DNA of 64,000 nt, from positions 45,277 through 109,276 of IMG/VR virus record IMGVR_UViG_3300012286_000299, one strand, 5' to 3'. The translations under genes were made by a program, and so were the position numbers. This stretch comes from a virus. Its lineage: Duplodnaviria; Heunggongvirae; Uroviricota; Caudoviricetes. Positions 44,232-55,351 of this stretch are shown here, piece by piece. Under the pieces are notes generated by a model. The model was not told the origin of the DNA, searched no databases, and saw only the letters and a list, made by a program, of their open reading frames with translations. Numbering within the stretch: position 1 is the stretch's first letter; each line of letters opens with the position of its first letter.

Positions 44232-44319
44232 GGAGAGGTAAGCCAAGTCGGTCTACGGGTCGCGGTCTTGAAAACCGTTGGGTGTAACAGCCGTGTGAGT
44301 TCAAGTCTCACTCTCTCCG
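44232..44319 (+). tRNA. tRNA-Ser(TGA)
   Basis: GCGGT-CTTGAAA-ACCGT, long variable arm, GTGAG-TTCAAGT-CTCAC. Confidence 0.9.
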
Positions 44320-44325
44320 CAATAT

Positions 44326-44397
44326 TGCTTCATAGTGTAATGGTTAGCACAAAACACTTTGACTGTTTTAGTTTGAGTTCGAGTCTCAATGAAGCAT
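44326..44397 (+). tRNA. tRNA-Gln(TTG)
   Basis: AAACA-CTTTGAC-TGTTT; TGCTTCA/TGAAGCA acceptor. Confidence 0.9.
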
Positions 44398-44407
44398 CAA
44401 TTAATTT

Positions 44408-44483
44408 CTGGTAGTAGAGGAGTCCGGTTTATCTCGCTGGCCTTGGACGCTAGAGCACGCAGGTTCGAATCCTGCCTACCAGA
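44408..44483 (+). tRNA. tRNA-Pro(TGG)
   Basis: CTGGC-CTTGGAC-GCTAG; GCAGG-TTCGAAT-CCTGC. Confidence 0.9.
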
Positions 44484-44489
44484 CAACAT

Positions 44490-44562
44490 TCCTTCGAAGC
44501 TCATGTGGACGGGCACCGGGCTTTTAACTCGGGGGTAGTTGGTTCGAGGCCAACCGGGGGAA
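44490..44562 (+). tRNA. tRNA-Lys(TTT)
   Basis: CCGGG-CTTTTAA-CTCGG; GTTGG-TTCGAGG-CCAAC. Confidence 0.85.
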
Positions 44563-44650
44563 CAAAATCAACTAGTCACTGTAAAACCAGTGGGCGTCAG
44601 TAAGTATTCTGAGCGACGTTTAAATCCTGAAAGCAATTGTTGATTTATTT

Positions 44651-44721
44651 GCCTCTGTCGTCTAAAGGTAGGGCCGTTGTTTTACATGCAACAGGTGGTG
44701 GTTCGATTCCATCCAGAGGTA
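44651..44721 (+). tRNA. tRNA-Val(TAC), atypical
   Basis: GCCTCTG/CAGAGGT acceptor; anticodon loop only 6 nt (TTACAT); extra G before T loop. Confidence 0.55.
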
Positions 44722-44729
44722 CAAAAATT

Positions 44730-44810
44730 GGGTAGCAAAAGTCGTTCGGATACGGCAGCCGGTCTGTAAAATCGGTCCTCACGGGGGTGGTTCGAGTCCA
44801 CTGTTGCCCA
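44730..44810 (+). tRNA. tRNA-Tyr(GTA)
   Basis: CCGGT-CTGTAAA-ATCGG; variable arm; GGTGG-TTCGAGT-CCACT. Confidence 0.85.
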
Positions 44811-44874
44811 CAGAATAGTAGAGAAAGGGTAGTCCGTTCCCCTACAACCAGTATACAGGTAAGCGGACGCATAA

Positions 44875-44947
44875 GGAGCTTTGGCAGATCAGGTGATTGC
44901 GCTAGACTGAAAATCTAGAGGAACGGGCTCGATACCCGTAGGCTCCA
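44875..44947 (+). tRNA. tRNA-Phe(GAA)
   Basis: CTAGA-CTGAAAA-TCTAG; T loop CTCGATA atypical. Confidence 0.85.
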
Positions 44948-44956
44948 CAAAAAATT

Positions 44957-45028
44957 GGATTGTTAGCTCAGAGGCAGAGCGGTTGTTTGTTAGGCAACGG
45001 GTCGGGATTTCGAAATTCCCACAATCCT
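44957..45028 (+). tRNA. tRNA-Asn(GTT)
   Basis: GTTGT-TTGTTAG-GCAAC; GGATTGT/ACAATCC. Confidence 0.8.
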
Positions 45029-45034
45029 CAAAAT

Positions 45035-45106
45035 TGCTCTATCGTATAAAGGTTATTACGGTTGACTGTTAATCAATTTATCTAGGTTCGAGTCCTAGTG
45101 GAGCAG
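45035..45106 (+). tRNA. tRNA-Asn(GTT), second copy
   Basis: GTTGA-CTGTTAA-TCAAT; CTAGG-TTCGAGT-CCTAG. Confidence 0.9.
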
Positions 45107-45116
45107 CAAATAAAAA

Positions 45117-45240
45117 TGGGGAAGAAATTCAAAACACTCTCGCGAATTTCTTCAGGAATGATAGTTAAGTAAAGAGTTACATCGGTAAAAACAAGCACTT
45201 GAAATTGTAAGTTAGTTGGTTCGAATCCAACCTTCCCCAC
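45117..45240 (+). ncRNA. tRNA-like RNA with acceptor stem and T arm but non-canonical interior
   Basis: GGGGAAG/CTTCCCC stem stacked on GTTGG-TTCGAAT-CCAAC; ~90 nt interior with GAAGAAATTC/GAATTTCTTC hairpin. Confidence 0.5.
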
Positions 45241-45369
45241 AAAGACTTTTTGTTTGATTAGGAATAATAGGTAGGTCGATAATTATTCCATGGCCCAGAA
45301 ACAATTAGTTAATATCACCAAGGAGGGGTCCATTAGAGGTGATTAATAAATATCTATAAACTCCTGCCA

Positions 45370-45442
45370 CGGTGCGTAGCTCAATCGGTAGAGCGCTGAT
45401 CTGATACGTCAGAGGTAGTGGGATCGTAACCCGCCGTACCGA
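45370..45442 (+). tRNA. tRNA-Ile(GAT)
   Basis: CTGAT-CTGATAC-GTCAG; T loop ATCGTAA atypical. Confidence 0.85.
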
Positions 45443-45510
45443 CAGAAAACCTAGAGTGCTCATTGAATGATGTGGATACAATTCCCGTTCCTTAAGTTCT
45501 AGGTTAAATT

Positions 45511-45597
45511 GGAGAATAGTCTAATATTGGTTTGTAGTGGCATCCTGCTAAGATGTTCCAGGTAAAACTGGTGAGGGTTCGATTCCCTTGTTCTCCG
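45511..45597 (+). tRNA. tRNA-Ser(GCT)
   Basis: GCATC-CTGCTAA-GATGT; CCAG-GTAAAA-CTGG variable arm. Confidence 0.9.
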
Positions 45598-45726
45598 CAA
45601 AAACCTACTCACCGTCCTCATTACGTGTTTAAGGAACACAGGAGTAGAATAGTACGCTCGGTGACTCAGTGGTAAGACACTTTAAAATCTAAAGTACAAC
45701 GATAAGTTAATGGGTTCTTATCAAAT

Positions 45727-45796
45727 ACCGAATGATCTTGGTGATCGAGAATGGCTCATATCCGCTCTCAGATTGGTTCGAAACCAATATTCGGTA
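45727..45796 (+). tRNA. tRNA(CAT), atypical compact
   Basis: ACCGAAT/ATTCGGT acceptor, CTCATAT loop, ATTGG-TTCGAAA-CCAAT; minimal D arm. Confidence 0.55.
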
Positions 45797-45919
45797 CAAG
45801 TAGCCCCGCTCGCGAGGGGATCGTAAAACACAGTAAGCCTCTGACACAAGCTCAAGTAACTGTTCTCATCGTATAGGAGATAGAGTTAACCTTCTCGACG
45901 TCGTGTAAAAAGGTAATAT

Positions 45920-45992
45920 GGTGTTTGTAGCTGAATGGTAAAGCGCTTGATTGTGGTTCAAGAGATTGCGGGTTCGAGTCCCGTCTTACACC
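45920..45992 (+). tRNA. tRNA-His(GTG)
   Basis: CTTGA-TTGTGGT-TCAAG; encoded G-1 opposite C73. Confidence 0.88.
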
Positions 45993-45999
45993 CAAATAT

Positions 46000-46072
46000 G
46001 CCCCTGTGGTGGAATGGAAGACACAACGAGTTTAAGCCTCGTAAACTGCAGGTTCGACTCCTGTCAGGGGTA
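46000..46072 (+). tRNA. tRNA-Leu(TAA), short variable loop
   Basis: ACGAG-TTTAAGC-CTCGT; variable region AAACT only. Confidence 0.85.
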
Positions 46073-46077
46073 CAATT

Positions 46078-46149
46078 GGTCTTATAGTTTAATTGGAAAA
46101 ACTTATCGCTACGAACGATAGAACAAAGGTTCGATCCCTTTTAAGACCT
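46078..46149 (+). tRNA. tRNA-Arg(ACG)
   Basis: TATCG-CTACGAA-CGATA; GGTCTTA/TAAGACC. Confidence 0.88.
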
Positions 46150-46151
46150 CA

Positions 46152-46304
46152 AAACATAATTACAAAGCGTAGATAAGAAGACGTGGAGAGACGTGTCGCA
46201 AGGGTACACAGTTGGGATAAACAGAAATGTTCGGCTCTCGATGGCTGTGTGAAGCACTGAGAAATCAGAAACCAGATTCCTGATAAATCTTATCAATTAT
46301 GTTT
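46152..46304 (+). ncRNA. Unassigned structured RNA between tRNA genes
   Basis: AAACATAATT/AATTATGTTT closing stem, GATAAGA/TCTTATC, ACACAG/CTGTGT, CTGA-GAAA-TCAG. Confidence 0.45.
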
Positions 46305-46308
46305 ATTT

Positions 46309-46381
46309 GCCCTTATAGCATAAATGGAAATGCCACATCCTTCTAAGATGTTCAATACCTGTTCGAATCGGGTTAGGGGTA
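46309..46381 (+). tRNA. tRNA-Arg(TCT)
   Basis: ACATC-CTTCTAA-GATGT. Confidence 0.85.
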
Positions 46382-46387
46382 CAAAAT

Positions 46388-46458
46388 GCGTTCCGCAGAC
46401 AAGGTGTCGGTCAGGTCTCCAAAACCTCGACGGCTGGGTTCGATTCCTAGGGTTCGCG
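46388..46458 (+). tRNA. tRNA-Trp(CCA)
   Basis: AGGT-CTCCAAA-ACCT; two T-T mismatches in acceptor. Confidence 0.75.
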
Positions 46459-46495
46459 CAAATTTAAATAATTGTTTCACTAAAAACCAGAAATC

Positions 46496-47002
46496 ATGAG
46501 TAAGTATCAAAAAACACTCGTAGTGGATTCAAGCTTTATTGCAAGATCAATTATCAGTACTGAAAGAGCATTCGTGATTTCGTACAAGGGTAATGCTGAA
46601 GTAGTAGCTGAACATCCAGAAACTTTCGGATTAGTAAATCCGGAATTAGAAATTTTTAAACCTTCAATTATTAGGGTTTATAAGTATGTAAAGCAAAACA
46701 TTCAAAAAGTTCCTCCAACAAGAGAAAACATCTATAGAAGAGATAACTTTGAATGTGTATATTGTGGAGACAGCAACCAAAGAACATTAACGTTAGATCA
46801 CGTTATTCCTCAATCAAAAGGGGGAAGAAATACATGGGATAACTTAGTAACAGCTTGTAAAAGATGTAATAGTGAAAAAGCCGATTTAACATTAGAAGAA
46901 TTTGGAAAGGAAATACCAGAACCAAAACGTCCTCATTACTTAATGTTGTTAAGACAAATTCACGATATTCCAAAAGAATGGGAACATTTTTTACTTTTTT
47001 AG
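46496..47002 (+). CDS. HNH endonuclease (McrA-like)
   Basis: RRDNFECVYCG, LTLDHVIPQSKGG..TWDNLVTACKRCNSEK. Confidence 0.92.
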   Translation: MSKYQKTLVVDSSFIARSIISTERAFVISYKGNAEVVAEHPETFGLVNPELEIFKPSIIRVYKYVKQNIQKVPPTRENIYRRDNFECVYCGDSNQRTLTLDHVIPQSKGGRNTWDNLVTACKRCNSEKADLTLEEFGKEIPEPKRPHYLMLLRQIHDIPKEWEHFLLF

Positions 47003-47046
47003 TAGGATATTCAAAATAAATTTTGTATATTTAATTATAATAAAAT

Positions 47047-47126
47047 AAATAAACACCTGCTACGTAATCACTGCAGGATAACACGTACAGACAAGGAAGA
47101 AAAGGTCAGTCCAGGTGTTTTTATTT
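47047..47126 (+). ncRNA. Unassigned hairpin-closed element abutting tRNA-Cys
   Basis: AAACACCTG/CAGGTGTTT closing stem. Confidence 0.3.
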
Positions 47127-47198
47127 GGTCCTAAGGCTGATGGTTAAGCTCCACGTCTGCAAAACGTAGGATTTAAAGTTCGAATCTTTATAGGACCT
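47127..47198 (+). tRNA. tRNA-Cys(GCA)
   Basis: ACGT-CTGCAAA-ACGT; GGTCCTA/TAGGACC; T discriminator. Confidence 0.88.
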
Positions 47199-47201
47199 CA
47201 A

Positions 47202-47253
47202 AAAAACTTTTAAAAAAAGTTTGGTTACGCAAAAAATATTTCGTATATTTAAG
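47202..47253 (+). repeat. ~52-bp promoter cassette duplicated at 48854-48906
   Basis: AAAAACTTTT(T)AAAAAAAGTTTGGTTAYGCAAAAAATATTTCGTATATTYAAG; contains TTTG-N20-TATATT. Confidence 0.85.
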
Positions 47254-47273
47254 ATGTAATAAAATAAATAATT

Positions 47274-47347
47274 GCCCGAGTAGCCGAATTGGTATAGGCG
47301 CTAGACTTAGGATCTAGATTTTGCGAGTTCGAGTCTCGCCTTGGGTA
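47274..47347 (+). tRNA. tRNA-Leu(TAG), short variable loop
   Basis: CTAGA-CTTAGGA-TCTAG; variable region ATTTT. Confidence 0.88.
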
Positions 47348-47352
47348 CAAAA

Positions 47353-47421
47353 TTAGAGTTAGCTTATAGTAAAGCAGTAGGATTCGGTTCCTACAGAACG
47401 GATACGAAAACCGACTCTAAT
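47353..47421 (+). pseudogene. Degenerate tRNA-Pro(CGG)-like
   Basis: TTAGAGT/ACTCTAA acceptor, 8-nt anticodon loop ATTCGGTT, degenerate T loop. Confidence 0.45.
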
Positions 47422-47426
47422 TAAAT

Positions 47427-47500
47427 GCTTCTGACGCATAAACGGTGGTGCACTTGATTTGTAACCAAGACTAGAGTCGGTTCGATCCCGATCAGAAGCT
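47427..47500 (+). tRNA. tRNA-Thr(TGT)
   Basis: CTTGA-TTTGTAA-CCAAG; GCTTCTG/CAGAAGC. Confidence 0.85.
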
Positions 47501-47581
47501 CAGGTGTGTCTCGGTACGCTCTGACGAAAGTCAACGACGAGGTCTCGGTAGACAGAACGCGTCTGATTCTACCCATAATTT

Positions 47582-47654
47582 GCGGGTGTCGTATAAAGGC
47601 TAATTATCTTTGACTTCCAATCAAATGATGAGGGTTCGATTCCCTCCATCCGCT
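47582..47654 (+). tRNA. tRNA-Gly(TCC)
   Basis: TTTGA-CTTCCAA-TCAAA; GCGGGTG/CATCCGC; T73. Confidence 0.92.
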
Positions 47655-47661
47655 CAAAACT

Positions 47662-47733
47662 GTTGCGTTAGTGAAGAGGTTAACACGTATCACTTTCTAT
47701 GATAAGGCACGGGTTCGATCCCCGTACGCAATA
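47662..47733 (+). tRNA. tRNA-Glu(TTC)
   Basis: TATCA-CTTTCTA-TGATA; unusual T at position 37. Confidence 0.75.
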
Positions 47734-47738
47734 CAAAA

Positions 47739-47811
47739 GGGTCGGTAGCATAAATGGCAAATGCGCTTGATTTGCAATCAGGAAGATTGGGTTCGAATCC
47801 CACCGTATCCA
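47739..47811 (+). tRNA. tRNA-Ala(TGC)
   Basis: CTTGA-TTTGCAA-TCAGG; G3:T70 pair; two acceptor mismatches. Confidence 0.75.
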
Positions 47812-47879
47812 CTACCCCGACAGGTGAATAGCTTAATCGACTTTACAGATTTGACAACTTGGAATAGACAGGTAATTTT

Positions 47880-47951
47880 GGTCTATTGGTGTAATGGTAA
47901 CAGTACTATCCTGTCACGGTAGTGTAGAGGGTTCGATTCCCTCATAGACCG
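47880..47951 (+). tRNA. tRNA-Asp(GTC)
   Basis: CTATC-CTGTCAC-GGTAG; GGTCTAT/ATAGACC. Confidence 0.9.
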
Positions 47952-47953
47952 CA

Positions 47954-48042
47954 AAATAAGTAGTAAGTAATTGAGATACTTCGAAATCTATTAGCAAAAT
48001 TGAAACTTCAAAAATCTTCTCAATTCAATCATTCTCTTATTT
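47954..48042 (+). ncRNA. TACTTCG-family structured RNA, copy E (no tRNA module)
   Basis: AAATAAG/CTTATTT and AATTGAGA/TCTCAATT stems; arms nearly identical to copy C. Confidence 0.7.
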
Positions 48043-48046
48043 AATT

Positions 48047-48120
48047 CGAGGCATAGTAGAGTTGGTTACAATGTCGCCCTGTCACGGCGAAGGTCACGGG
48101 TTCGAGTCCCGTTGTCTCGG
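48047..48120 (+). tRNA. tRNA-Asp(GTC), second copy
   Basis: TCGCC-CTGTCAC-GGCGA; ACGGG-TTCGAGT-CCCGT. Confidence 0.9.
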
Positions 48121-48132
48121 CAAATATTAAAT

Positions 48133-48207
48133 GGCGGGTGGATCCGGTTGGTATCGGGGATAGTCTCATAAGCTATATTAAACGTGGTTCGATTCCACGA
48201 CGTCGCA
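48133..48207 (+). tRNA. tRNA(CAT), Met or Ile2, imperfect acceptor stem
   Basis: ATAGT-CTCATAA-GCTAT; CGTGG-TTCGATT-CCACG. Confidence 0.6.
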
Positions 48208-48218
48208 ACAAATTAAAC

Positions 48219-48320
48219 GGCAATGCTCTTAGGAGAGGCGGTGTTTCATGAGCACCAAATGAAGGAGTGGAATGTTAATGAGCTCTTAAACATTCTTCGG
48301 TTCGAATCCCCTCATTGCTA
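48219..48320 (+). ncRNA. tRNA-like RNA, CAT loop with very long variable arm
   Basis: GGCAATG/CATTGCT acceptor; GGTGT-TTCATGA-GCACC; GAATGTT/AACATTC extra hairpin; weak T stem. Confidence 0.45.
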
Positions 48321-48334
48321 CAAATAAAATACAT

Positions 48335-48406
48335 AGCGGGATAGAGCAGAGGCAGCTCGTTGGGCTCATAACCCAAAGGTCGGAGGTTCGAATCCTCCTC
48401 CCGCAA
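48335..48406 (+). tRNA. Initiator tRNA-Met(CAT)
   Basis: GGG/CCC at base of anticodon stem; 1:72 mismatch. Confidence 0.88.
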
Positions 48407-48412
48407 CTAATT

Positions 48413-48486
48413 GTCCTTTTAGCTCAGTTGGTTAGAGCAGCTCGCTCATAACGAGAAGGTCACAGGTTCGAGTCCTGTATAGGACA
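48413..48486 (+). tRNA. tRNA(CAT), elongator Met or Ile2
   Basis: CTCG-CTCATAA-CGAG; canonical D and T arms. Confidence 0.88.
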
Positions 48487-48552
48487 CTAAAATTTTATCC
48501 ATTATGAGGTCAATTCCTTCGTCTCCAATGTAAGTTAGCTACTGGCTAATTT

Positions 48553-48786
48553 ATGACTCAAAATTTGAGAATTTGGAGAGTAGTTCCTACCAGTAAGACT
48601 GGTGTTCAGGCTCCCACGTTTTTTGTTGAAACAACAGAGAACGGACGAGAAGAAGCAGTAGCATCTGCAAACCGCCAAGCAAGACAGAGATCAGGTTTGG
48701 GTAAGTTTAACAATTGGAATTTCGAATTAACTAAAATGAATGTCAGAGTTGACAAACATGGAAGATATATTCGTCACCACCAATAA
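48553..48786 (+). CDS. Small basic hypothetical protein
   Basis: 77 aa ORF; phage-like start context. Confidence 0.55.
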   Translation: MTQNLRIWRVVPTSKTGVQAPTFFVETTENGREEAVASANRQARQRSGLGKFNNWNFELTKMNVRVDKHGRYIRHHQ

Positions 48787-48805
48787 GAAAGTATTTGAAG
48801 AAAGG

Positions 48806-48837
48806 TTTGGAAACCTGAGCCTTTCTTCTTATATTGA
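48806..48837 (+). promoter_or_regulatory. Promoter overlapping terminator-like hairpin
   Basis: TTTG-N20-TATATTGA within AAGAAAGG/CCTTTCTT inverted repeat. Confidence 0.6.
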
Positions 48838-48872
48838 ATAAAGAAAAATAAATAAAAACTTTTTAAAAAAAG

Positions 48873-48904
48873 TTTGGTTATGCAAAAAATATTTCGTATA
48901 TTCA
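48873..48904 (+). promoter_or_regulatory. Promoter of structured-RNA/TROVE unit
   Basis: TTTG-N20-TATATTCA. Confidence 0.8.
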
Positions 48905-48943
48905 AGCATAATAAAAAGATTAAAACGTTCATTGAAAAAAATA

Positions 48944-49076
48944 TTGTAAGTGGTAAGTAAGTAAGAGTTACTTCGTTTTTTAGCTCATCTGGTAGAGCAT
49001 AAATTTTTGGTATTTAAGGCAGCAGGTTCAACTCCTGCAAAAACTCACAGACACTCTCTTCACCATTCCCTTACAA
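48944..49076 (+). ncRNA. Y-RNA-like copy A enclosing a normal-order tRNA-Gln(TTG)-like cloverleaf (48975-49044)
   Basis: TTGTAAG/CTTACAA outer stem, GAGTTACTTCG motif, D arm GCTC..GAGC, TAAAT-TTTTGGT-ATTTA, GCAGG-TTCAACT-CCTGC. Confidence 0.7.
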
Positions 49077-49082
49077 CACATA

Positions 49083-49227
49083 TTATAAGTGGTAATAACA
49101 CGTGTTACTTCGCTCTGTTAAAGCCGTGGTCGTGGGTTCGAGCCCCACTCTGAGAAACGTAAATGTCGTCTTAGATAGCTCAGTTGGTAGAGCACGTAAA
49201 TCGACACAGTTAGTCATTCCCTTATAA
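49083..49227 (+). ncRNA. Y-RNA-like copy B with circularly permuted tRNA-Asn(GTT)-like module
   Basis: Order: anticodon hairpin, T arm, acceptor 3' TCTGAGA, loop, acceptor 5' TCTTAGA, D arm; TTATAAG/CTTATAA outer stem. Confidence 0.75.
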
Positions 49228-49235
49228 AAACATAA

Positions 49236-49315
49236 TCAAGTGGTAAGTATTTGAGATACTTCGCAAATTTTTAGGTATAATTTTCACAATCTTCTCAAAT
49301 CAATCATTCCCTTGA
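49236..49315 (+). ncRNA. Y-RNA-like copy C (no tRNA module)
   Basis: TCAAG/CTTGA and TTTGAGA/TCTCAAA stems; GAGATACTTCG motif. Confidence 0.7.
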
Positions 49316-49319
49316 CACA

Positions 49320-49466
49320 TAAAGTAGTAGTAATAGAAAGAGTTACTTCGTATATTGGTTCGATTCCAATATTTTCCGCCAAAACAGGAAAATTAGACAA
49401 ATGGTTAAGTCATCTAACTGCAAATTAGACAAAAATTGTTCACTCTTCTAAATGTTCTCTACTTAT
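49320..49466 (+). ncRNA. Y-RNA-like copy D with circularly permuted tRNA-Cys(GCA)-like module
   Basis: Order: T arm, acceptor 3' ATTTTCC-G-CCA, linker, acceptor 5' GGAAAAT, D arm, TCTAA-CTGCAAA-TTAGA. Confidence 0.78.
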
Positions 49467-49551: not shown

Positions 49552-51129
49552 ATGGCAAGATACAACACAAAAGCAGTATCAAAAGTACAGACAGTAACTA
49601 ATCACCAAGGTGGTACAGGTTACGCTATCGATCCAAAATTGGAATTAATCGGTATTTTAGCAACAGGGTTAGATAACTCTTATTACGAAAAACTAACAGA
49701 TAAAGAAACTCGTTTCAAAACTCTGATTGTTGATTTAGCTAAGAAAGATCCTGAGTTCGTAGCCAAAGCATTGGTATACGCTAGAACAGTAATGGGACAA
49801 AGAACAGTTACTCACTTCGGTGCAGTAGCACTTACTCCAGCACTTTCTGGTAGAGCAGTTGCTAAAAAATTCTTCTCAAAGAGAGAGAAAAAAGTTAATA
49901 AAGGAGGTATCGTATTCAGATTGGATGATATTCTTGAAATTGTAGCATGTTACCAACACTTCAATCCAGGTAAAGCATTACCAAACTCGATGAAGAAAGG
50001 TTTCAAAACTGCATTAGAATCAGCAGATGCTTACGAATTGGCTAAATATCAAGGTAAAAATAGATCTGTGTCTCTTGTGGATGTTGTGAACTTAGTTCAC
50101 CCTACTCCAAAAGAAACAATGCAAGAAACTTTCAAACAGTTAATGAATGGAAATCTAAAACAATTCAATACTGTTGAGGATAAAAACACAAAAGCTGGAC
50201 AAGAAGTAGCTGCAAAAGTTAAGTCAGGTGAAATTACTAAAGCTCAAGCTGAAGTTGTTTTACAAGAAGCTAAAGAATCTAACTACGCTGAGTTAATCAA
50301 AACTAGAAAGATTGGATACCTAGCATTACTACGTAATTTAAGAAACATCTTAAATACTACAGGAAATGCTGAGTTAATCAAAGCAGCTTGTGAATTGTTA
50401 ACTGATGAGAAATTAATCAGACAGTCATTAGTATTTCCTCACCAAATTGATATCGCATTAGAGGTATTAGTTCTAGAGGTAGGAGCTTCTCAAGCTAGAC
50501 CATTCGTAGCAGCTTTAGATAAAGCATACGAATTAGCTATTCCAAACTTAACTGATTTATTTGCTCACGGTAGAACTGCAGTTGTATTCGATACATCAGG
50601 TTCTATGCACGGAATGGGTCAAGGAGTTAAGATCAATGGGAAAGCAATTAATAAACAATGTATGGAGAAAGCAGCCTTAATTGGTGCAACTCTTGCAAAA
50701 GGTATTGGAGCTGACTTATACCAATTCGGTACAACTTGTGAGGAAGTAAGATACAATCCAAATGATAGCATCAACACTATCAAGAGAATTGGATTATCTC
50801 AAGAAGGTAGAGTAGGTCACGGAACTAGTTTCAACTCAATCTTCGAAACATTAAGTAGATCAGGTAAGTATGATAGAATCTTTATCATCTCCGATTTACA
50901 AGGTGGAGATAGTATTGTAGGTAACAGTAGCTTTAAAAACTACAAATCTAAGTTCGGAGAACCAACAATCTACTCAATTGATATCCAAGGTTACGGGACT
51001 ACAATGTTCAAACCAGGAAACAAATTAGTACAATTGTTCGGATACTCAGCAGATATCTACGAGATGGTTAGACGTGCAGAAATGGACCCTAAAGCAATCT
51101 TAACAGCTATCAACGCTATTGAAATTTAA
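49552..51129 (+). CDS. Ro60/TROVE-domain RNA-binding protein with C-terminal vWA
   Basis: VTNHQGGTGY, DPEFVAKALVYAR, YELAKYQGK, YLALLRNLRNI, LVFPHQ, VFDTSGSM, IFIISDLQ, IDIQGYG. Confidence 0.92.
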   Translation: MARYNTKAVSKVQTVTNHQGGTGYAIDPKLELIGILATGLDNSYYEKLTDKETRFKTLIVDLAKKDPEFVAKALVYARTVMGQRTVTHFGAVALTPALSGRAVAKKFFSKREKKVNKGGIVFRLDDILEIVACYQHFNPGKALPNSMKKGFKTALESADAYELAKYQGKNRSVSLVDVVNLVHPTPKETMQETFKQLMNGNLKQFNTVEDKNTKAGQEVAAKVKSGEITKAQAEVVLQEAKESNYAELIKTRKIGYLALLRNLRNILNTTGNAELIKAACELLTDEKLIRQSLVFPHQIDIALEVLVLEVGASQARPFVAALDKAYELAIPNLTDLFAHGRTAVVFDTSGSMHGMGQGVKINGKAINKQCMEKAALIGATLAKGIGADLYQFGTTCEEVRYNPNDSINTIKRIGLSQEGRVGHGTSFNSIFETLSRSGKYDRIFIISDLQGGDSIVGNSSFKNYKSKFGEPTIYSIDIQGYGTTMFKPGNKLVQLFGYSADIYEMVRRAEMDPKAILTAINAIEI

Positions 51130-51131
51130 AA

Positions 51132-51158
51132 ATAAGGGCGATCTTCGGATCCCCTTAT
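51132..51158 (+). terminator. Hairpin after TROVE gene
   Basis: ATAAGGG-C-GATC-TTCG-GATC-CCCTTAT, UUCG tetraloop. Confidence 0.65.
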
Positions 51159-51194
51159 ATATTTATATGCACACATAAGTTCTTATATATTTTA

Positions 51195-51280
51195 TCGTAG
51201 TAAAAGCTTGGGGTACTTCGCAAATCAAAAACTTCGTGACTTCGCGTCACATACTTTATGACAAGCAATTAACCACCTCG
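51195..51280 (+). ncRNA. Possible degenerate TACTTCG-family copy F
   Basis: GTAGTAAAAGCTTGGGGTACTTCGCAAAT; GCTTG/CAAGC pairing; follows ATATTTAT motif. Confidence 0.35.
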
Positions 51281-51412
51281 TTTTTGTTACCTTGAGGACC
51301 ATTACTGGTGACAGTTTTAGGAGCATAAAAAAGGTAACCCCGCTAGGAGTTAAAGAGCAAAACCCATCTTGGGATTCTCGATTAAAATATATAAGAAATT
51401 TTTTAGAAAAAG

Positions 51413-51444
51413 CTTGCTTCGGCAGGCTTTTTTTCGTATATTTA
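51413..51444 (+). promoter_or_regulatory. Fused terminator-promoter cassette
   Basis: AAGCTTGC-TTCG-GCAGGCTT-T run-CG-TATATTTA; CTTG-N20-TATATTTA. Confidence 0.75.
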
Positions 51445-51468
51445 AGTATAAATAAAAAGATAAAGGTT

Positions 51469-51741
51469 ATGAAAGTAAAGTTATTAAAAAAGATTAGAAA
51501 AAGATATTCTATAATCCATTACCCAAACGGAATTTATTTGGGAGATCAGTTTTGGGAAGGTCCTCTTACATGTTTAGTAGATAATACTAATAAATGGAGA
51601 TTGCAAACTATGTTTGGTCAAAAAGAGGAAGGCTATAAAGCTCTATACAAACATATGATGTATTGGATTGAAAAAGATTATGGTCCACTTAAAAGTAAAA
51701 GTAGAAAAGTAACATCAGAACAACTCTGGTATAAAAAATAA
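51469..51741 (+). CDS. Hypothetical basic protein (90 aa)
   Basis: AAAGGTT-ATG just downstream of promoter; upstream extension to 51292 unlikely. Confidence 0.6.
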   Translation: MKVKLLKKIRKRYSIIHYPNGIYLGDQFWEGPLTCLVDNTNKWRLQTMFGQKEEGYKALYKHMMYWIEKDYGPLKSKSRKVTSEQLWYKK

Positions 51742-51746
51742 AAGTT

Positions 51747-52166
51747 ATGGATTTAGCAAGAGCAATATCAATAGCAGCAGTAGGATTTGAAAAAGTAATG
51801 GATAAAGGTGGACAACCTTATATCTTACATTGTCTTAGAGTAATGAATCAAATGGATACTGAAGAAGAAAAAATAGTAGCGATTTTACATGATACTGTTG
51901 AAGATGGAGTTATCACAATTGAGGAACTAATCAAAGAAAGATTCTCACAAAATGTAATTTATGCTTTGATTTTACTTACTCACGAGAAAGGAAAACCATA
52001 TGACGAATACATTAAAGGAATATCAATAGATACCTTAGCAACTAAAGTAAAATTAGCAGATTTAAAAGATAATTCTGACATTACACGATTAAAAGGTTTA
52101 ACTAAGAAAGACTTTGATAGAATGGAGAAATACCATAGATCATATGTCTATCTTTCAAAAATATAA
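51747..52166 (+). CDS. HD-domain hydrolase (RelA/SpoT-HD-like)
   Basis: DKGGQPYILHCLRV, AILHDTVED, VKLADLKDN. Confidence 0.85.
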   Translation: MDLARAISIAAVGFEKVMDKGGQPYILHCLRVMNQMDTEEEKIVAILHDTVEDGVITIEELIKERFSQNVIYALILLTHEKGKPYDEYIKGISIDTLATKVKLADLKDNSDITRLKGLTKKDFDRMEKYHRSYVYLSKI

Positions 52167-52168
52167 AA

Positions 52169-52822
52169 ATGAAAATAGTACTAGAAAATAACCAAAAACT
52201 ATTCTTTACATCAGATACACATTTTGGTCACTCAAACATTTGTAGTGCAACTACAACATGGACTGATGCCCAAGATATGACTAGAGATTTTCCTTCATTA
52301 GAAGCAATGAATGATGCTTTAGTAAATGGAATTAATAGTAAAGTAGGACAAAATGATATTTTAATTCATTTAGGTGATTGGTCATTTGGTGGGTTTGAAA
52401 ATATCCAAAAATTTAGAGATAGAATAGTTTGTAAAAACATTCACTTGATTTTAGGTAATCATGATCATCATATTATGAATGACAAAGATAATATTGCTGA
52501 CTTATTTTTATCAGTAAATCATTACGGATACATAACAGTAGTACGTCCTAATAAGAAACAAGAAAGACACGATAGATTCCGTTTTATTCTATGTCATTTT
52601 CCAATAGCGTCATGGCATGATATGAACCAAGGTGTAATTCACTTGCATGGTCACGTTCATTTACCACCACATTTAAGATTAGCTGAAGGTAAAGCAATGG
52701 ATGTTGGAGTAGATGGAAACGGTTTAGAGCCTTTATCATTAAACGAGATATTATCTATAATGAAAGATCAACCAATTAAAAAATTAGCATTACCAAAGGA
52801 TCATCATGAAAAAAGAATCTAA
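52169..52822 (+). CDS. Calcineurin-like metallophosphoesterase
   Basis: TSDTHFGH, HLGDW, LGNHD, HLHGHVH, DVGVD. Confidence 0.9.
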   Translation: MKIVLENNQKLFFTSDTHFGHSNICSATTTWTDAQDMTRDFPSLEAMNDALVNGINSKVGQNDILIHLGDWSFGGFENIQKFRDRIVCKNIHLILGNHDHHIMNDKDNIADLFLSVNHYGYITVVRPNKKQERHDRFRFILCHFPIASWHDMNQGVIHLHGHVHLPPHLRLAEGKAMDVGVDGNGLEPLSLNEILSIMKDQPIKKLALPKDHHEKRI

Positions 52823-53657
52823 AAAAATATTACACAAAGGAAGAATCTATCTGAAAGATGGAGTATGGGTAGTGAGATATGAAACTAAAGAGAAAGTTAA
52901 AGGAGGTTCTCCTAAACAACTTGGAAGTTATAATATCAGAACAAAAGCTAATTTTGTACCTATCATAGTAGAAGACACTAAAAATTTAATAGATCCTTAT
53001 AGTCAGGGTAAAGAAACTTGTTTTGAATATATCATAAAAACTGAAATAGAAAACGGTTATAAGAATCAACCACCAGGAACAATAGGGTTTGTAGCGCAAA
53101 CTAAACAAGTATGGTATGCTAAATTATGGCCTGTTTCTGAAATGGCTCAGGAATTGCAGCATTATTTTGAAACAACACCTCAAGAAAAAATTGATGAGGA
53201 TTGGGAGAAAGTAAAGGAATTTGATAACGTAGGACCAACAGTAGAAGAATTTTTAGGAATAAATCAAAATAATATGAAAGAGTTATTTTTATTAAGAGGA
53301 TTGCCTGGAGCAGGTAAATCAACATTAGCAAAGTCAATAGGTGGAATGCATGTCGAAGCTGATATGTACCATATGTACGAAGGAAAATATAACTTTGATG
53401 TTACTAAAATAAAAGAAGCTCATGCTTGGTGTCAAAATGCTGCAAAGGTTTGGATGAATAGTGGACTTCCTAAAGTAATAGTATCAAATACATTCACCCA
53501 AGAATGGGAAATGCAACCATACTTAGATTTAGCTAAAGAACATGGGTATAGAGTTTATTCTTTGATTGTAGAAAATAGACATGGAGGAGTAAATGAGCAT
53601 AATGTCCCACAAGAGGTATTAGAAAAAATGAAAAACCGATTCGAAATTTCATTATGA
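52806..53657 (+). CDS. P-loop kinase (AAA_33/polynucleotide-kinase-like) with unrelated N-terminal extension
   Basis: LRGLPGAGKST, EAD, AHAWCQ, VIVSNTFT, HNVPQEVLEKM; alternative start at 53274. Confidence 0.8.
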   Translation: MKKESKKILHKGRIYLKDGVWVVRYETKEKVKGGSPKQLGSYNIRTKANFVPIIVEDTKNLIDPYSQGKETCFEYIIKTEIENGYKNQPPGTIGFVAQTKQVWYAKLWPVSEMAQELQHYFETTPQEKIDEDWEKVKEFDNVGPTVEEFLGINQNNMKELFLLRGLPGAGKSTLAKSIGGMHVEADMYHMYEGKYNFDVTKIKEAHAWCQNAAKVWMNSGLPKVIVSNTFTQEWEMQPYLDLAKEHGYRVYSLIVENRHGGVNEHNVPQEVLEKMKNRFEISL

Positions 53658-53941
53658 AAGAAACATTTGAACAATACTTACAAAGACTAAAAGACAGACG
53701 TACAGAAGATGATTACAAGTACACTGATGAGGATTTTATCAAATATGAAGAATACATCAGAGATTGTTGTAAAAATGGAATGAGTGTTTACAAATGTTTA
53801 GAGTTTATGTATTTTGCAGAAAAAGATATGGACGATCAATTATTCAATAGAGAACCTAGAGAAGAAATCCAACCAGAACAAATTTGGAATGATGAGAAAA
53901 AAGAAGGAATAAAAAAATTAATACAAGAACATAAAAAATGA
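53654..53941 (+). CDS. Hypothetical protein
   Basis: 95 aa, ATGA overlaps. Confidence 0.55.
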   Translation: MKETFEQYLQRLKDRRTEDDYKYTDEDFIKYEEYIRDCCKNGMSVYKCLEFMYFAEKDMDDQLFNREPREEIQPEQIWNDEKKEGIKKLIQEHKK

Positions 53942-54237
53942 AATCAATCAGATTAGATAATAGTACTTATGTTCATGTATATGTTCATAGAATACCGGTA
54001 TCATTAGAAGAAGCAGTTATTTCAAGTGAAACAGGATCTTTCCCTGACTATGAAGAACTAGCTAATCAATACATTGATGCTTTAGATGATCATTGGTGTG
54101 TAGCATTTTTAGAAGAACTACACAAAGTATGTGCTCAAAGAATTGTAGAGCATTGGGAAGAATGTGCTCCTAATCAATTAGAAGAAGAACATTATAAACA
54201 ATATTTAAAATTTAAAAAGAATAAAGATGGAAAATAA
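53938..54237 (+). CDS. Hypothetical protein
   Basis: 99 aa, overlapping neighbours. Confidence 0.55.
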   Translation: MKSIRLDNSTYVHVYVHRIPVSLEEAVISSETGSFPDYEELANQYIDALDDHWCVAFLEELHKVCAQRIVEHWEECAPNQLEEEHYKQYLKFKKNKDGK

Positions 54238-55351
54238 CAATTCAGTTTGTTTTGTAGCAAAAATAAACGAAGTAAAAGCAATCGAAGGAGCTGATAACAT
54301 CGAACAAGCAGTTATCGGAGGATGGAATACTATTGTAAAAAAAGGAACACATTATGCTGGACAACTAGTAATAGTTGCAACTACTGATGCAGTTATTCCT
54401 GTAGAACTTTCTGACAAATATGGTGTAACCAACTACCTAAGAAAAGGACAAAGAGTAAGAACTGTAAAACTAAGAGGAGTTTACTCTGAATGTTTAGTAA
54501 TACCAATTACTCCAGGACATGAGATTAATTACTCAGAGGGTCAAGATATGATGTCAAAACTTGGCATTGTAAAATACGAACCACCAGTTAAACAAATTCA
54601 ACTTGCTTCAGGTAGAAAAATCAAATGGAGAGACAACCAAAACTTCCATATCTACTACAAATTCCCAAATCTTAAAAACGTAGCAGGAATGTTTACACAA
54701 GAAGATGAGGTTCAAATCACTAGAAAAATTCACGGTACAAATGCTAGATATGGTATTGTAAGAAAATCTAAATTATCATTCTGGGATAAAGTAAAAAAAT
54801 TCTTTAGAATAGCTGATAAGTGGATTGATTATGAGTATGTATACGGATCTCATAACTGTGAGAAAGGAAGTGACTCTCAAGGATTTTATTCAACTGATGT
54901 TTGGAGAACAGTTGCTGAGGGGTATGGTATTAAAGATAGACTTTGGGAAATGGTTAAACAATATAGTGTTGAGGATTTAGGATCTGGAGTAGTTCTTTAC
55001 GGAGAAATCTATGGGGCTGGAATTCAAAAGAATTATGATTATGGATTAACAGATATTAAATTTGTAGCATTTGACATCACAATAAATGGAGAATATTTAG
55101 CACCAGAAATAACTCATATAGTTACTTCTTGTGGGTTGCAACTTTCTCACGTAGAGGTTCTTTATGAAGGAAAATGGGATCAAGAAATTCAAGATGAATA
55201 TACATTCAACAACTTCATTGAAGGAACAAAAATACCACATGAAGGAATTGTAATCAAACATGCATCAGGTGATAGAAAGAAAGTAGCCAAAGTAATTAAT
55301 CCTGACTACTTAATCTACGGAGAGAAAAATGATGTAGGAGATTCTCATTAA
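54227..55351 (+). CDS. ATP-dependent RNA ligase with N-terminal OB-like domain (DRB0094/Rnl2-like)
   Basis: IEGADNIE, LRGVYSECL, motif I TRKIHGTN, YGEIYG..IQK, FDI, EGIVIK, KVINPDYL. Confidence 0.85.
   Translation: MENNNSVCFVAKINEVKAIEGADNIEQAVIGGWNTIVKKGTHYAGQLVIVATTDAVIPVELSDKYGVTNYLRKGQRVRTVKLRGVYSECLVIPITPGHEINYSEGQDMMSKLGIVKYEPPVKQIQLASGRKIKWRDNQNFHIYYKFPNLKNVAGMFTQEDEVQITRKIHGTNARYGIVRKSKLSFWDKVKKFFRIADKWIDYEYVYGSHNCEKGSDSQGFYSTDVWRTVAEGYGIKDRLWEMVKQYSVEDLGSGVVLYGEIYGAGIQKNYDYGLTDIKFVAFDITINGEYLAPEITHIVTSCGLQLSHVEVLYEGKWDQEIQDEYTFNNFIEGTKIPHEGIVIKHASGDRKKVAKVINPDYLIYGEKNDVGDSH

Follow-up and report, generated by a model that had tools for sequence, protein, structure and literature searches.

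What kind of element is repeated upstream of the Ro60/TROVE gene in a 64,000-nucleotide (nt) stretch of a Caudoviricetes virus (IMG/VR record IMGVR_UViG_3300012286_000299, positions 45,277 to 109,276)? This stretch, hereafter the window, is part of a 173-kilobase (kb) virus record. It carries several copies of the motif TACTTCG, set between arms that differ in sequence from copy to copy and can pair with each other. A preliminary description had named five copies, A to E, and proposed that they share a two-stem RNA handle maintained by selection on structure. We find that the handle is a conserved RNA structure of phages, oriented like a nearby TROVE gene, and that the elements carrying it are quite probably Y-RNA genes. 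The copies are given below in the order in which they occur. Bit scores come from two covariance models: a seed model of 16 pairs, seeded with copies E and C and one short homologue, and a family model, with 158 matches at an expectation value (E) <= 0.01 and 148 distinct sequences.

Copy E, 47954-48042, + strand: handle with a short 34-nt loop; UACUUCG at 47977-47983; 107.1 bits (seed model) and 82.9 bits (family model).
Copy A, 48944-49076, + strand: handle with a cloverleaf in normal order; UACUUCG at 48969-48975; 32.9 and 63.8 bits.
Copy B, 49083-49227, + strand: handle with a permuted, YrlA-type domain; UACUUCG at 49106-49112; 27.1 and 49.2 bits.
Copy C, 49236-49315, + strand: handle with a short 26-nt loop; UACUUCG at 49257-49263; 98.7 and 72.2 bits.
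Copy D, 49321-49465, + strand: handle with a differently permuted tRNA-like body; UACUUCG at 49344-49350; 22.4 and 50.1 bits.

All five copies share one layout: 5-7 pairs form an outer helix, a bulged U and two further pairs come next, and beyond an internal loop stands an inner helix of 4-7 pairs, inside which come TACTTCG, a variable insert and then both 3' strands. The internal loop starts with U-N-A on its 5' strand and ends with UU on its 3' strand, and the inner helix closes with G-C and U-A before the single-stranded UACUUCG. The two pairs after the bulged U (R-Y and G-C) covary: copies A, B and C have GG/CC, copies D and E AG/CT. The bulged U occurs in every member; together with its two extra pairs and the conserved 3' UU it was absent from the preliminary description, whose outer stems (A TTGTAAG/CTTACAA, B TTATAAG/CTTATAA, C TCAAG/CTTGA, D AAGTAG/CTACTT, E AAATAAG/CTTATTT) proved correct when the sequence was re-read. 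Its inner stems are exact for C (TTTGAGA/TCTCAAA) and E (ATTGAGA/TCTCAAT), and copy A, which it had not listed, forms AGAGT/ACTCT. For copy B, four Watson-Crick pairs of the proposed GTGTT/GACAC stand (GTGT/ACAC), the fifth being a T-G wobble whose T is already the first base of TACTTCG; for copy D, GAGT/ACTC and a further stretch both pair, with a one-base bulge between them.

The motif itself is over-represented, with 10 matches in the window against 3.06 +/- 1.92 expected (none of 100 shuffles reached 10), six of the ten being + strand matches in the vicinity of the TROVE gene. When each copy is folded singly, both helices appear in the minimum-energy or centroid structure, and for E and C in the minimum-energy one. 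The fold energies are ordinary for the composition (z -0.7 to -1.6), and the case for structure therefore rests on comparison between sequences and not on thermodynamics. A partner able to pair with UACUUCG was sought in the five copies and none was found, which indicates that the motif is single-stranded there. Two named motifs were considered and rejected: a UUCG tetraloop, as the would-be closing base after the G varies, and K-turn or sarcin-ricin readings of the internal loop, whose 3' strand is without the needed GA or GAA.

Comparison between sequences was based on the seed model because a MAFFT alignment of ten short copies had misregistered the inner 3' strand; the three-sequence seed and model-based alignment were used instead. 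Without having been seeded with them, this model picks up A, B and D over their full length; beyond the five copies no match in the window is better than E = 0.44, and over the whole 173-kb virus it lists nothing credible beyond the known copies. Taken by themselves, the five copies have 93.7% of their cells paired, compared with 67.5% in shuffled sequences and 38-58% in slid registers; 11 of 16 pairs are changed on both sides, and none of 500 shuffles reaches any of five measures. Among 79 distinct homologues found with the seed model the paired share is 92.1% (63.9% shuffled, 41-54% slid), every one of the 16 pairs changes on both sides, and 340 cells hold double changes against 109. The 148 distinct homologues of the family model give 90.2% (61.3% shuffled, 46-55% slid) and 691 double-change cells against 228. 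These pair counts come from model-fitted alignments, which are biased towards structure, and for this reason a partner-swap test was added that uses fixed offsets from sequence anchors and no model fitting. With its own 3' arm rather than that of another copy, the inner helix forms 4.82 of 5 pairs versus 3.95 and the outer helix 8.10 of 9 versus 5.90. Furthermore, G-U pairs outnumber the mirror A-C cells by 31 to 16, as would be expected of a + strand RNA. All three kinds of control (shuffles, slid registers and partner swaps) agree, and the proposal that the compensatory changes reflect selection on RNA structure, and not a plain DNA repeat, is borne out in the five copies and in both sets of homologues.

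Conservation extends to bases outside the helices. In all 148 sequences the bulged U (U8), A13 of the 5' loop, and U30, C32, U34 and C35 of the motif are invariant and unpaired. Other motif positions are nearly fixed (A31 in 141, U33 in 131 and G37 in 138 of the 148), as are the two U that precede the two conserved 3' pairs (144/148 and 139/148). The motif had been called invariant; this holds for the five copies, and across the 148 sequences it becomes nearly so, with four of seven positions strictly invariant.

The second part of the question concerns the neighbouring gene, to which the preliminary description had tied the handle.

Ro60/TROVE gene, 49552-51129, + strand: 525 amino acids (Pfam TROVE, E 9.3e-14); presumed protein partner of the handle RNAs.

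Its product aligns over its full length (residues 16-516, E 1.7e-19) with the Ro60 of Thermus phage phiLo (PDB 9KOP/9L5Y), which is its closest solved relative. The five copies lie 87-1510 nt upstream of the gene, 87 nt separating the end of copy D from it. A search with the TROVE protein returned 19 viral and 54 metagenomic loci at 27-77% identity. In 586 kb of these relatives' loci the seed model makes 102 matches at E <= 1, all on the TROVE strand; 90 of them are upstream of TROVE, where a gap of 55-100 nt usually separates the last copy from the start codon, and in some distant clades the array is downstream. All 158 matches of the family model are likewise co-oriented with a nearby TROVE gene. 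Placement on the same strand near Ro60, the pattern of bacterial and phage Y RNAs, was thus found for the five copies and for the family. In locus L005, where TROVE is 70% identical, the paralogue order A, B, C is kept and compensatory changes separate the orthologues.

Most of these loci were picked through TROVE, which makes the co-occurrence partly circular, and two motif-first scans answer this only in part. A loose motif pattern (GGTAA...GTTACTTCG) gave mostly chance hits among the matches listed, and an 18-base pattern was used instead. Applied to IMG/VR with no use of TROVE, the latter found 26 stretches, 19 of them confirmed by the model, and 18 of these 19 are on TROVE-carrying contigs. 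The same pattern found 59 stretches in 596 gigabases of prokaryote genomes, about the chance expectation; two were model-confirmed, and both adjoin a TROVE gene 76-78% identical to that of the window. The handle is phage-restricted and tied to TROVE, and the link made in the preliminary description is supported as co-occurrence, by the 18 of 19 motif-first stretches and a strand that is always shared.

Named phages place further bounds on the family. A near-identity search of the region against GenBank phages gave no match. Neither model finds a handle in Streptomyces phage BRock, Vibrio phage phiTY18 or Thermus phage phiLo, from which it follows that the handle is not general to phage Y RNAs. 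In phage csAssE-Sib (OR575929.1; L233:3496-3915), three handle matches are found directly upstream of an annotated 'Ro sixty-related protein', and two of them enclose an annotated tRNA-Tyr and tRNA-Lys, which may be Y-RNA/tRNA chimeras and not plain tRNAs. As a side observation on BRock, a match to the manA RNA motif just under the cut-off (49.7 versus 55.2 bits) is found between two tRNA-Lys near the Ro60 gene (L089:5079-5242), and two partial YrlA matches are located upstream of that gene.

The known RNAs of Ro60 offer a framework for these elements. Y RNAs combine a terminal stem that holds the Ro60 site with a variable module, and YrlA genes are found within 4 kb of Ro60 on the same strand (PMC4201824). 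In bacterial and phage YrlA a GNCGAAN0-1G motif stands just 5' of a permuted tRNA-like domain (PMC4201824). The phiLo Ro60 binds two upstream Yrl RNAs through a stem-bulge region with a CGAA motif, each base of which adds three- to four-fold to affinity (PMC12135203). A terminal stem of the same kind was found here, as two covarying helices join the ends of the RNA in the five copies and 148 homologues, at a total length of 66-204 nt. Like YrlA (Rfam RF02553), the elements stand beside Ro60 on its strand, join a modular terminal stem to a tRNA-like domain, and carry a short conserved motif on the 5' strand just before that domain. In copy B the T arm, loop-closed acceptor stem and D arm even succeed one another as in YrlA, and the core of the YrlA model is matched at E 4e-5. 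They differ from YrlA in having conserved bases on both strands of the handle, whereas the Salmonella and Mycobacterium RNAs are recognisable on the 5' strand only, and in having 3-6 paralogues per phage. Moreover, YrlA is without an anticodon loop (bioRxiv 10.1101/312249), while the cargos of the handle include canonical anticodon loops and cloverleaves in normal order.

Other Y RNAs resemble the handle family in other respects. Yrl1 and Yrl2 of phiLo are also phage-encoded, lie directly upstream of the phage Ro60 and have a stem-bulge-stem form with a short motif in the bulge (PMC12135203). Their motif is CGAA, the family model finds no match in the phiLo locus, and the phiLo paper describes two copies and reports no tRNA-like cargo, against five or six copies here (PMC12135203). 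Yrn1 of Deinococcus radiodurans has elements like T and D arms in the order opposite to YrlA, with a hairpin like an anticodon arm between them (PMC4201824), and is the nearest precedent for the normal-order cargo of copy A. It is only loosely tRNA-like (a 6-nt loop and no clear D arm), whereas copy A scores 54.7 bits with a 7-nt loop, U33 and purine 37. The Ro site of Yrn1 is similar to the metazoan helix, a feature not observed in the handle. The metazoan Y RNAs (RF00019) share a terminal stem with a conserved bulged helix, several paralogues and a variable loop module, and differ in their conserved sequence and in being without tRNA-like cargo. In metazoan Y RNAs, the bulged helix of the terminal stem is the Ro60 site.

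The inserts are of several kinds. Across the 148 sequences 58 are short, 52 begin with a T loop, 24 hold a full tRNA and 14 are of other form; at gathering thresholds, Rfam lists tRNAs alone in the region of the copies. The short-loop members E and C are without a tRNA-like domain. In copy A the cloverleaf occupies 48974-49046 with anticodon UUG, and the handle is joined to its acceptor ends in such a way that the G of UACUUCG is tRNA position 1. It has a 7-base-pair (bp) acceptor stem of G-C and A-U pairs only, D, anticodon and T arms, a 7-nt loop, U33 and purine 37; Rfam scores it as tRNA at 54.7 bits, ARAGORN calls tRNA-Gln, and its body is far from that of the free tRNA-Gln(UUG) at 44326. 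Copy B runs from a hairpin with a 7-nt loop through the T arm and the loop-closed acceptor stem to the D arm. Copy D opens with the T arm; the acceptor 3' strand and G-CCA come next, and a linker of 5 nt leads to the acceptor 5' strand, after which stand the D arm and an anticodon arm whose loop reads CUGCAAA. Part of this body (49387-49442) matches Rfam tRNA at 31.1 bits. With respect to YrlA domain order, B fits, D starts with the T arm yet has a CCA and an anticodon arm, and A is in normal order.

In homologues with an embedded cloverleaf the acceptor, D and T stems covary, and the anticodon loops are of 7 nt with U33 and purine 37. ARAGORN assigns them to Gln, Pro, Gly, Leu, Lys, Glu, Cys, Thr, Tyr and Ser, and to the anticodon UCA. 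Throughout, they share one body type, unlike the free isoacceptor of the phage, with a D arm like that of YrlA and no encoded CCA. Judged by these sequence features, the embedded cloverleaves resemble a set of paralogues that mimic whole tRNAs more than they resemble normal isoacceptors.

Because the handle fits both the architecture and the position of Y RNAs, we interpret it as the module by which a separate family of phage Y RNAs would bind Ro60. By this analogy, the five elements and a divergent sixth, described below, are in all probability paralogous phage Y-RNA genes, in which the handle forms the terminal stem and a putative Ro60-binding module. The handle would most likely dock each RNA on the ring of Ro60/TROVE encoded directly downstream, with UACUUCG, the positional counterpart of the GNCGAA/CGAA Ro60-contact motif, as a putative contact site. 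The variable insert would then serve as effector or cargo; E and C have no more than a short loop in this place, B and D a tRNA-like body in permuted form, and A an entire cloverleaf. A polycistronic transcript of tRNAs and Y RNAs is the probable source from which the RNAs would be excised, and the particles that they form would probably take part in the surveillance or repair of tRNAs, together with the products of the neighbouring kinase, phosphatase and ligase genes.

Several points weigh against this reading, among them the structural bias of the fitted alignments and the partly circular choice of loci noted above. Copy B reaches 33.8 bits with the YrlA model against a cut-off of 69, over model positions 23-87 of 114, and its handle stays unmatched; on the other copies Rfam YrlA gives no handle match. 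The motif is UACUUCG and not GNCGAAN0-1G, with CG alone in common, and after its G come U (61), A (55), C (22) and G (8) among the 148 sequences, A thus making up about one third. Rfam Y_RNA lists no match over the region at E up to 10. Lastly, locus L225 (1499-1780) has two good handles followed by a terminator and small open reading frames (ORFs), with TROVE present as a 24-residue C-terminal trace and PhoH and Hsp20 genes downstream; here the handle either persists with no adjacent Ro60 gene, or the locus is decaying, or Ro60 is elsewhere on the contig. By its score, its core-only match, its different motif and the lack of a handle in BRock, phiTY18 and phiLo, the handle family is outside Rfam YrlA as curated.

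The surroundings of the copies, from which several of the competing explanations draw, comprise the following features.

tRNA run, 44232-48487, + strand: about 25 genes (Rfam tRNA and ARAGORN), leading into the region of the handle copies.
HNH endonuclease gene, 46496-47002: inserted inside the tRNA array (Pfam HNH_5, E 1.7e-18).
HD domain, metallophosphoesterase, AAA_33 kinase and RNA ligase genes, 51747-55351, + strand: assigned by Pfam, HD_4 below the cut-off and the others above.

The last four genes, downstream of TROVE, are a set for RNA end-healing and sealing. Copy E is hemmed in by two tRNA-Asp genes, of which the first ends at 47952 (ARAGORN) and the second begins at 48047, 4 nt on. 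A 77-amino-acid ORF with no Pfam family (48553-48786) is followed by a strong terminator-like hairpin (48797-48828); both part the tRNA array and copy E from copies A-D, which suggests that A-D and TROVE form a transcription unit of their own. The spacers between the tandem copies (49076-49082, 49228-49235 and 49316-49320) are 5-8 nt long and have a common ACATA-like sequence, which also precedes handles in related loci and may be a processing site.

A bolder account would make the handle a universal adaptor, through which cargos shaped like tRNAs and equipped with authentic anticodon loops are loaded, by three attachment points, onto the phage Ro60 ring. The particles would act as decoys, sensors or repair platforms for tRNAs hit by host anticodon nucleases, in concert with the kinase, phosphatase and RNA ligase; or else the cloverleaves would be real tRNAs, whose precursors Ro60 keeps until they are needed. 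We regard this account as possible, though rather doubtful.

It is unlikely that the handle is a device for maturation or stability, namely a leader-trailer duplex for cutting by RNase III, RNase E or RNase P/Z, or for end protection, with the TROVE linkage reflecting a shared operon. Such a device would suit the close packing of the copies, 5-8 nt apart with similar ACATA-type spacers, and the two tRNAs that tightly flank copy E, since tRNA end-processing would free it. It would also suit L225, which keeps its handles in the absence of an intact TROVE, and nuclease protection has been discussed as a possible role of the tRNA-like fold of YrlA (Chen et al. 2014, PMC4201824). A simple duplex, however, needs neither at least six invariant unpaired bases nor a bulged U and a conserved 3' loop end, all kept across loci whose TROVE is 27-40% identical to that of the window. 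In addition, the approximately 25 ordinary tRNAs of the same array do without a handle, and the handle is essentially never found away from TROVE.

Permuted tRNA genes of a red alga mature to functional tRNAs by opening of the acceptor linker. A comparable, splicing-like role for the handle would be that of a guide whose paired ends are cut and then sealed by the kinase/phosphatase and RNA ligase, while RNase P and 3' trimming open the linker to give functional tRNAs. Copy D invites such a view, as no element of a tRNA is missing from its permuted body, in which G-CCA and a linker of 5 nt are also encoded, and so do the kinase, phosphoesterase and RNA ligase genes within 4 kb downstream and the YrlA of Mycobacterium smegmatis, which is cut by RNase P and given CCA (PMC4201824). 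We nevertheless find it very improbable: the largest class of inserts (58/148) consists of short loops with no tRNA parts, the 24 normal-order cloverleaves need no rejoining, copy B has a loop-closed acceptor stem and a mere 3-bp anticodon-like hairpin, and no endonuclease for such a motif was identified at this locus. A DNA-level repeat with no role in RNA structure, for instance sites of recombination or of a homing endonuclease, or else a small mobile element that spreads in the tRNA cluster, could draw on the HNH endonuclease gene at 46496-47002 and on the distance of about 900 bp between copy E and the other copies, and is hardly credible given stems that differ in sequence and keep their pairing, a strand that is always that of TROVE, the G-U excess (31 versus 16), and the A, B, C order kept in L005 with compensatory changes between orthologues.

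If these elements are phage Y RNAs, as we favour, they speak to the long-standing question of the role of the tRNA-like module in bacterial Y RNAs. Phage Y RNAs beside Ro60 are already known; the novelty lies in the conserved two-helix handle, in the number of its copies and in the variety of its cargo. One conserved handle with three kinds of cargo, in arrays of up to six per phage beside Ro60 and genes for end-healing and ligation, amounts to a natural cargo-swap set on a constant, putative protein-binding module, and offers a direct test of how Ro60 handles tRNA-shaped RNAs during infection. The curated YrlA model is blind to this family, and because two cloverleaves embedded in handles of csAssE-Sib are annotated as plain tRNAs, phage tRNA counts may include chimeras.

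The divergent sixth element, absent from the preliminary description, lies on the other side of the TROVE gene.

Sixth copy, ~51182-51397, + strand: about 215 nt, after the TROVE stop codon; UACUUCG at 51214-51220; family model 29.9 bits, E 0.005 (51191-51385).
Terminator-like hairpin, 51405-51434: follows the sixth copy.

The outer stem of the sixth copy is long and A/U-rich, its 5' loop reads GUAGUAA, its 146-nt insert is devoid of tRNA features, and its fold has a z-score of -2.6. Locus L006 and the previously mentioned L005 both keep it, with two compensatory changes in the outer stem, and it is probably a member of the handle family. For this element, unlike the others, RNAalifold proposes pairing between UACUU and a conserved AGGUA, on the basis of three sequences that do not covary at that place. 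Between the TROVE gene and this element there is a further hairpin at 51135-51157. A listed ORF of 149 amino acids (51292-51741) has a TTG start inside the sixth RNA; the in-frame ATG at 51469, past the terminator-like site, is the more likely start and would give about 90 amino acids. Within the tRNA array, the approximately 210 nt between tRNA-Asp and tRNA-Met (48121-48334) contain T-loop-like sequences in which ARAGORN calls no tRNA, and 48134-48206 gives a weak Rfam match to tRNA-Sec (23.9 bits against a cut-off of 47); this interval may hold aberrant or interrupted tRNA genes.

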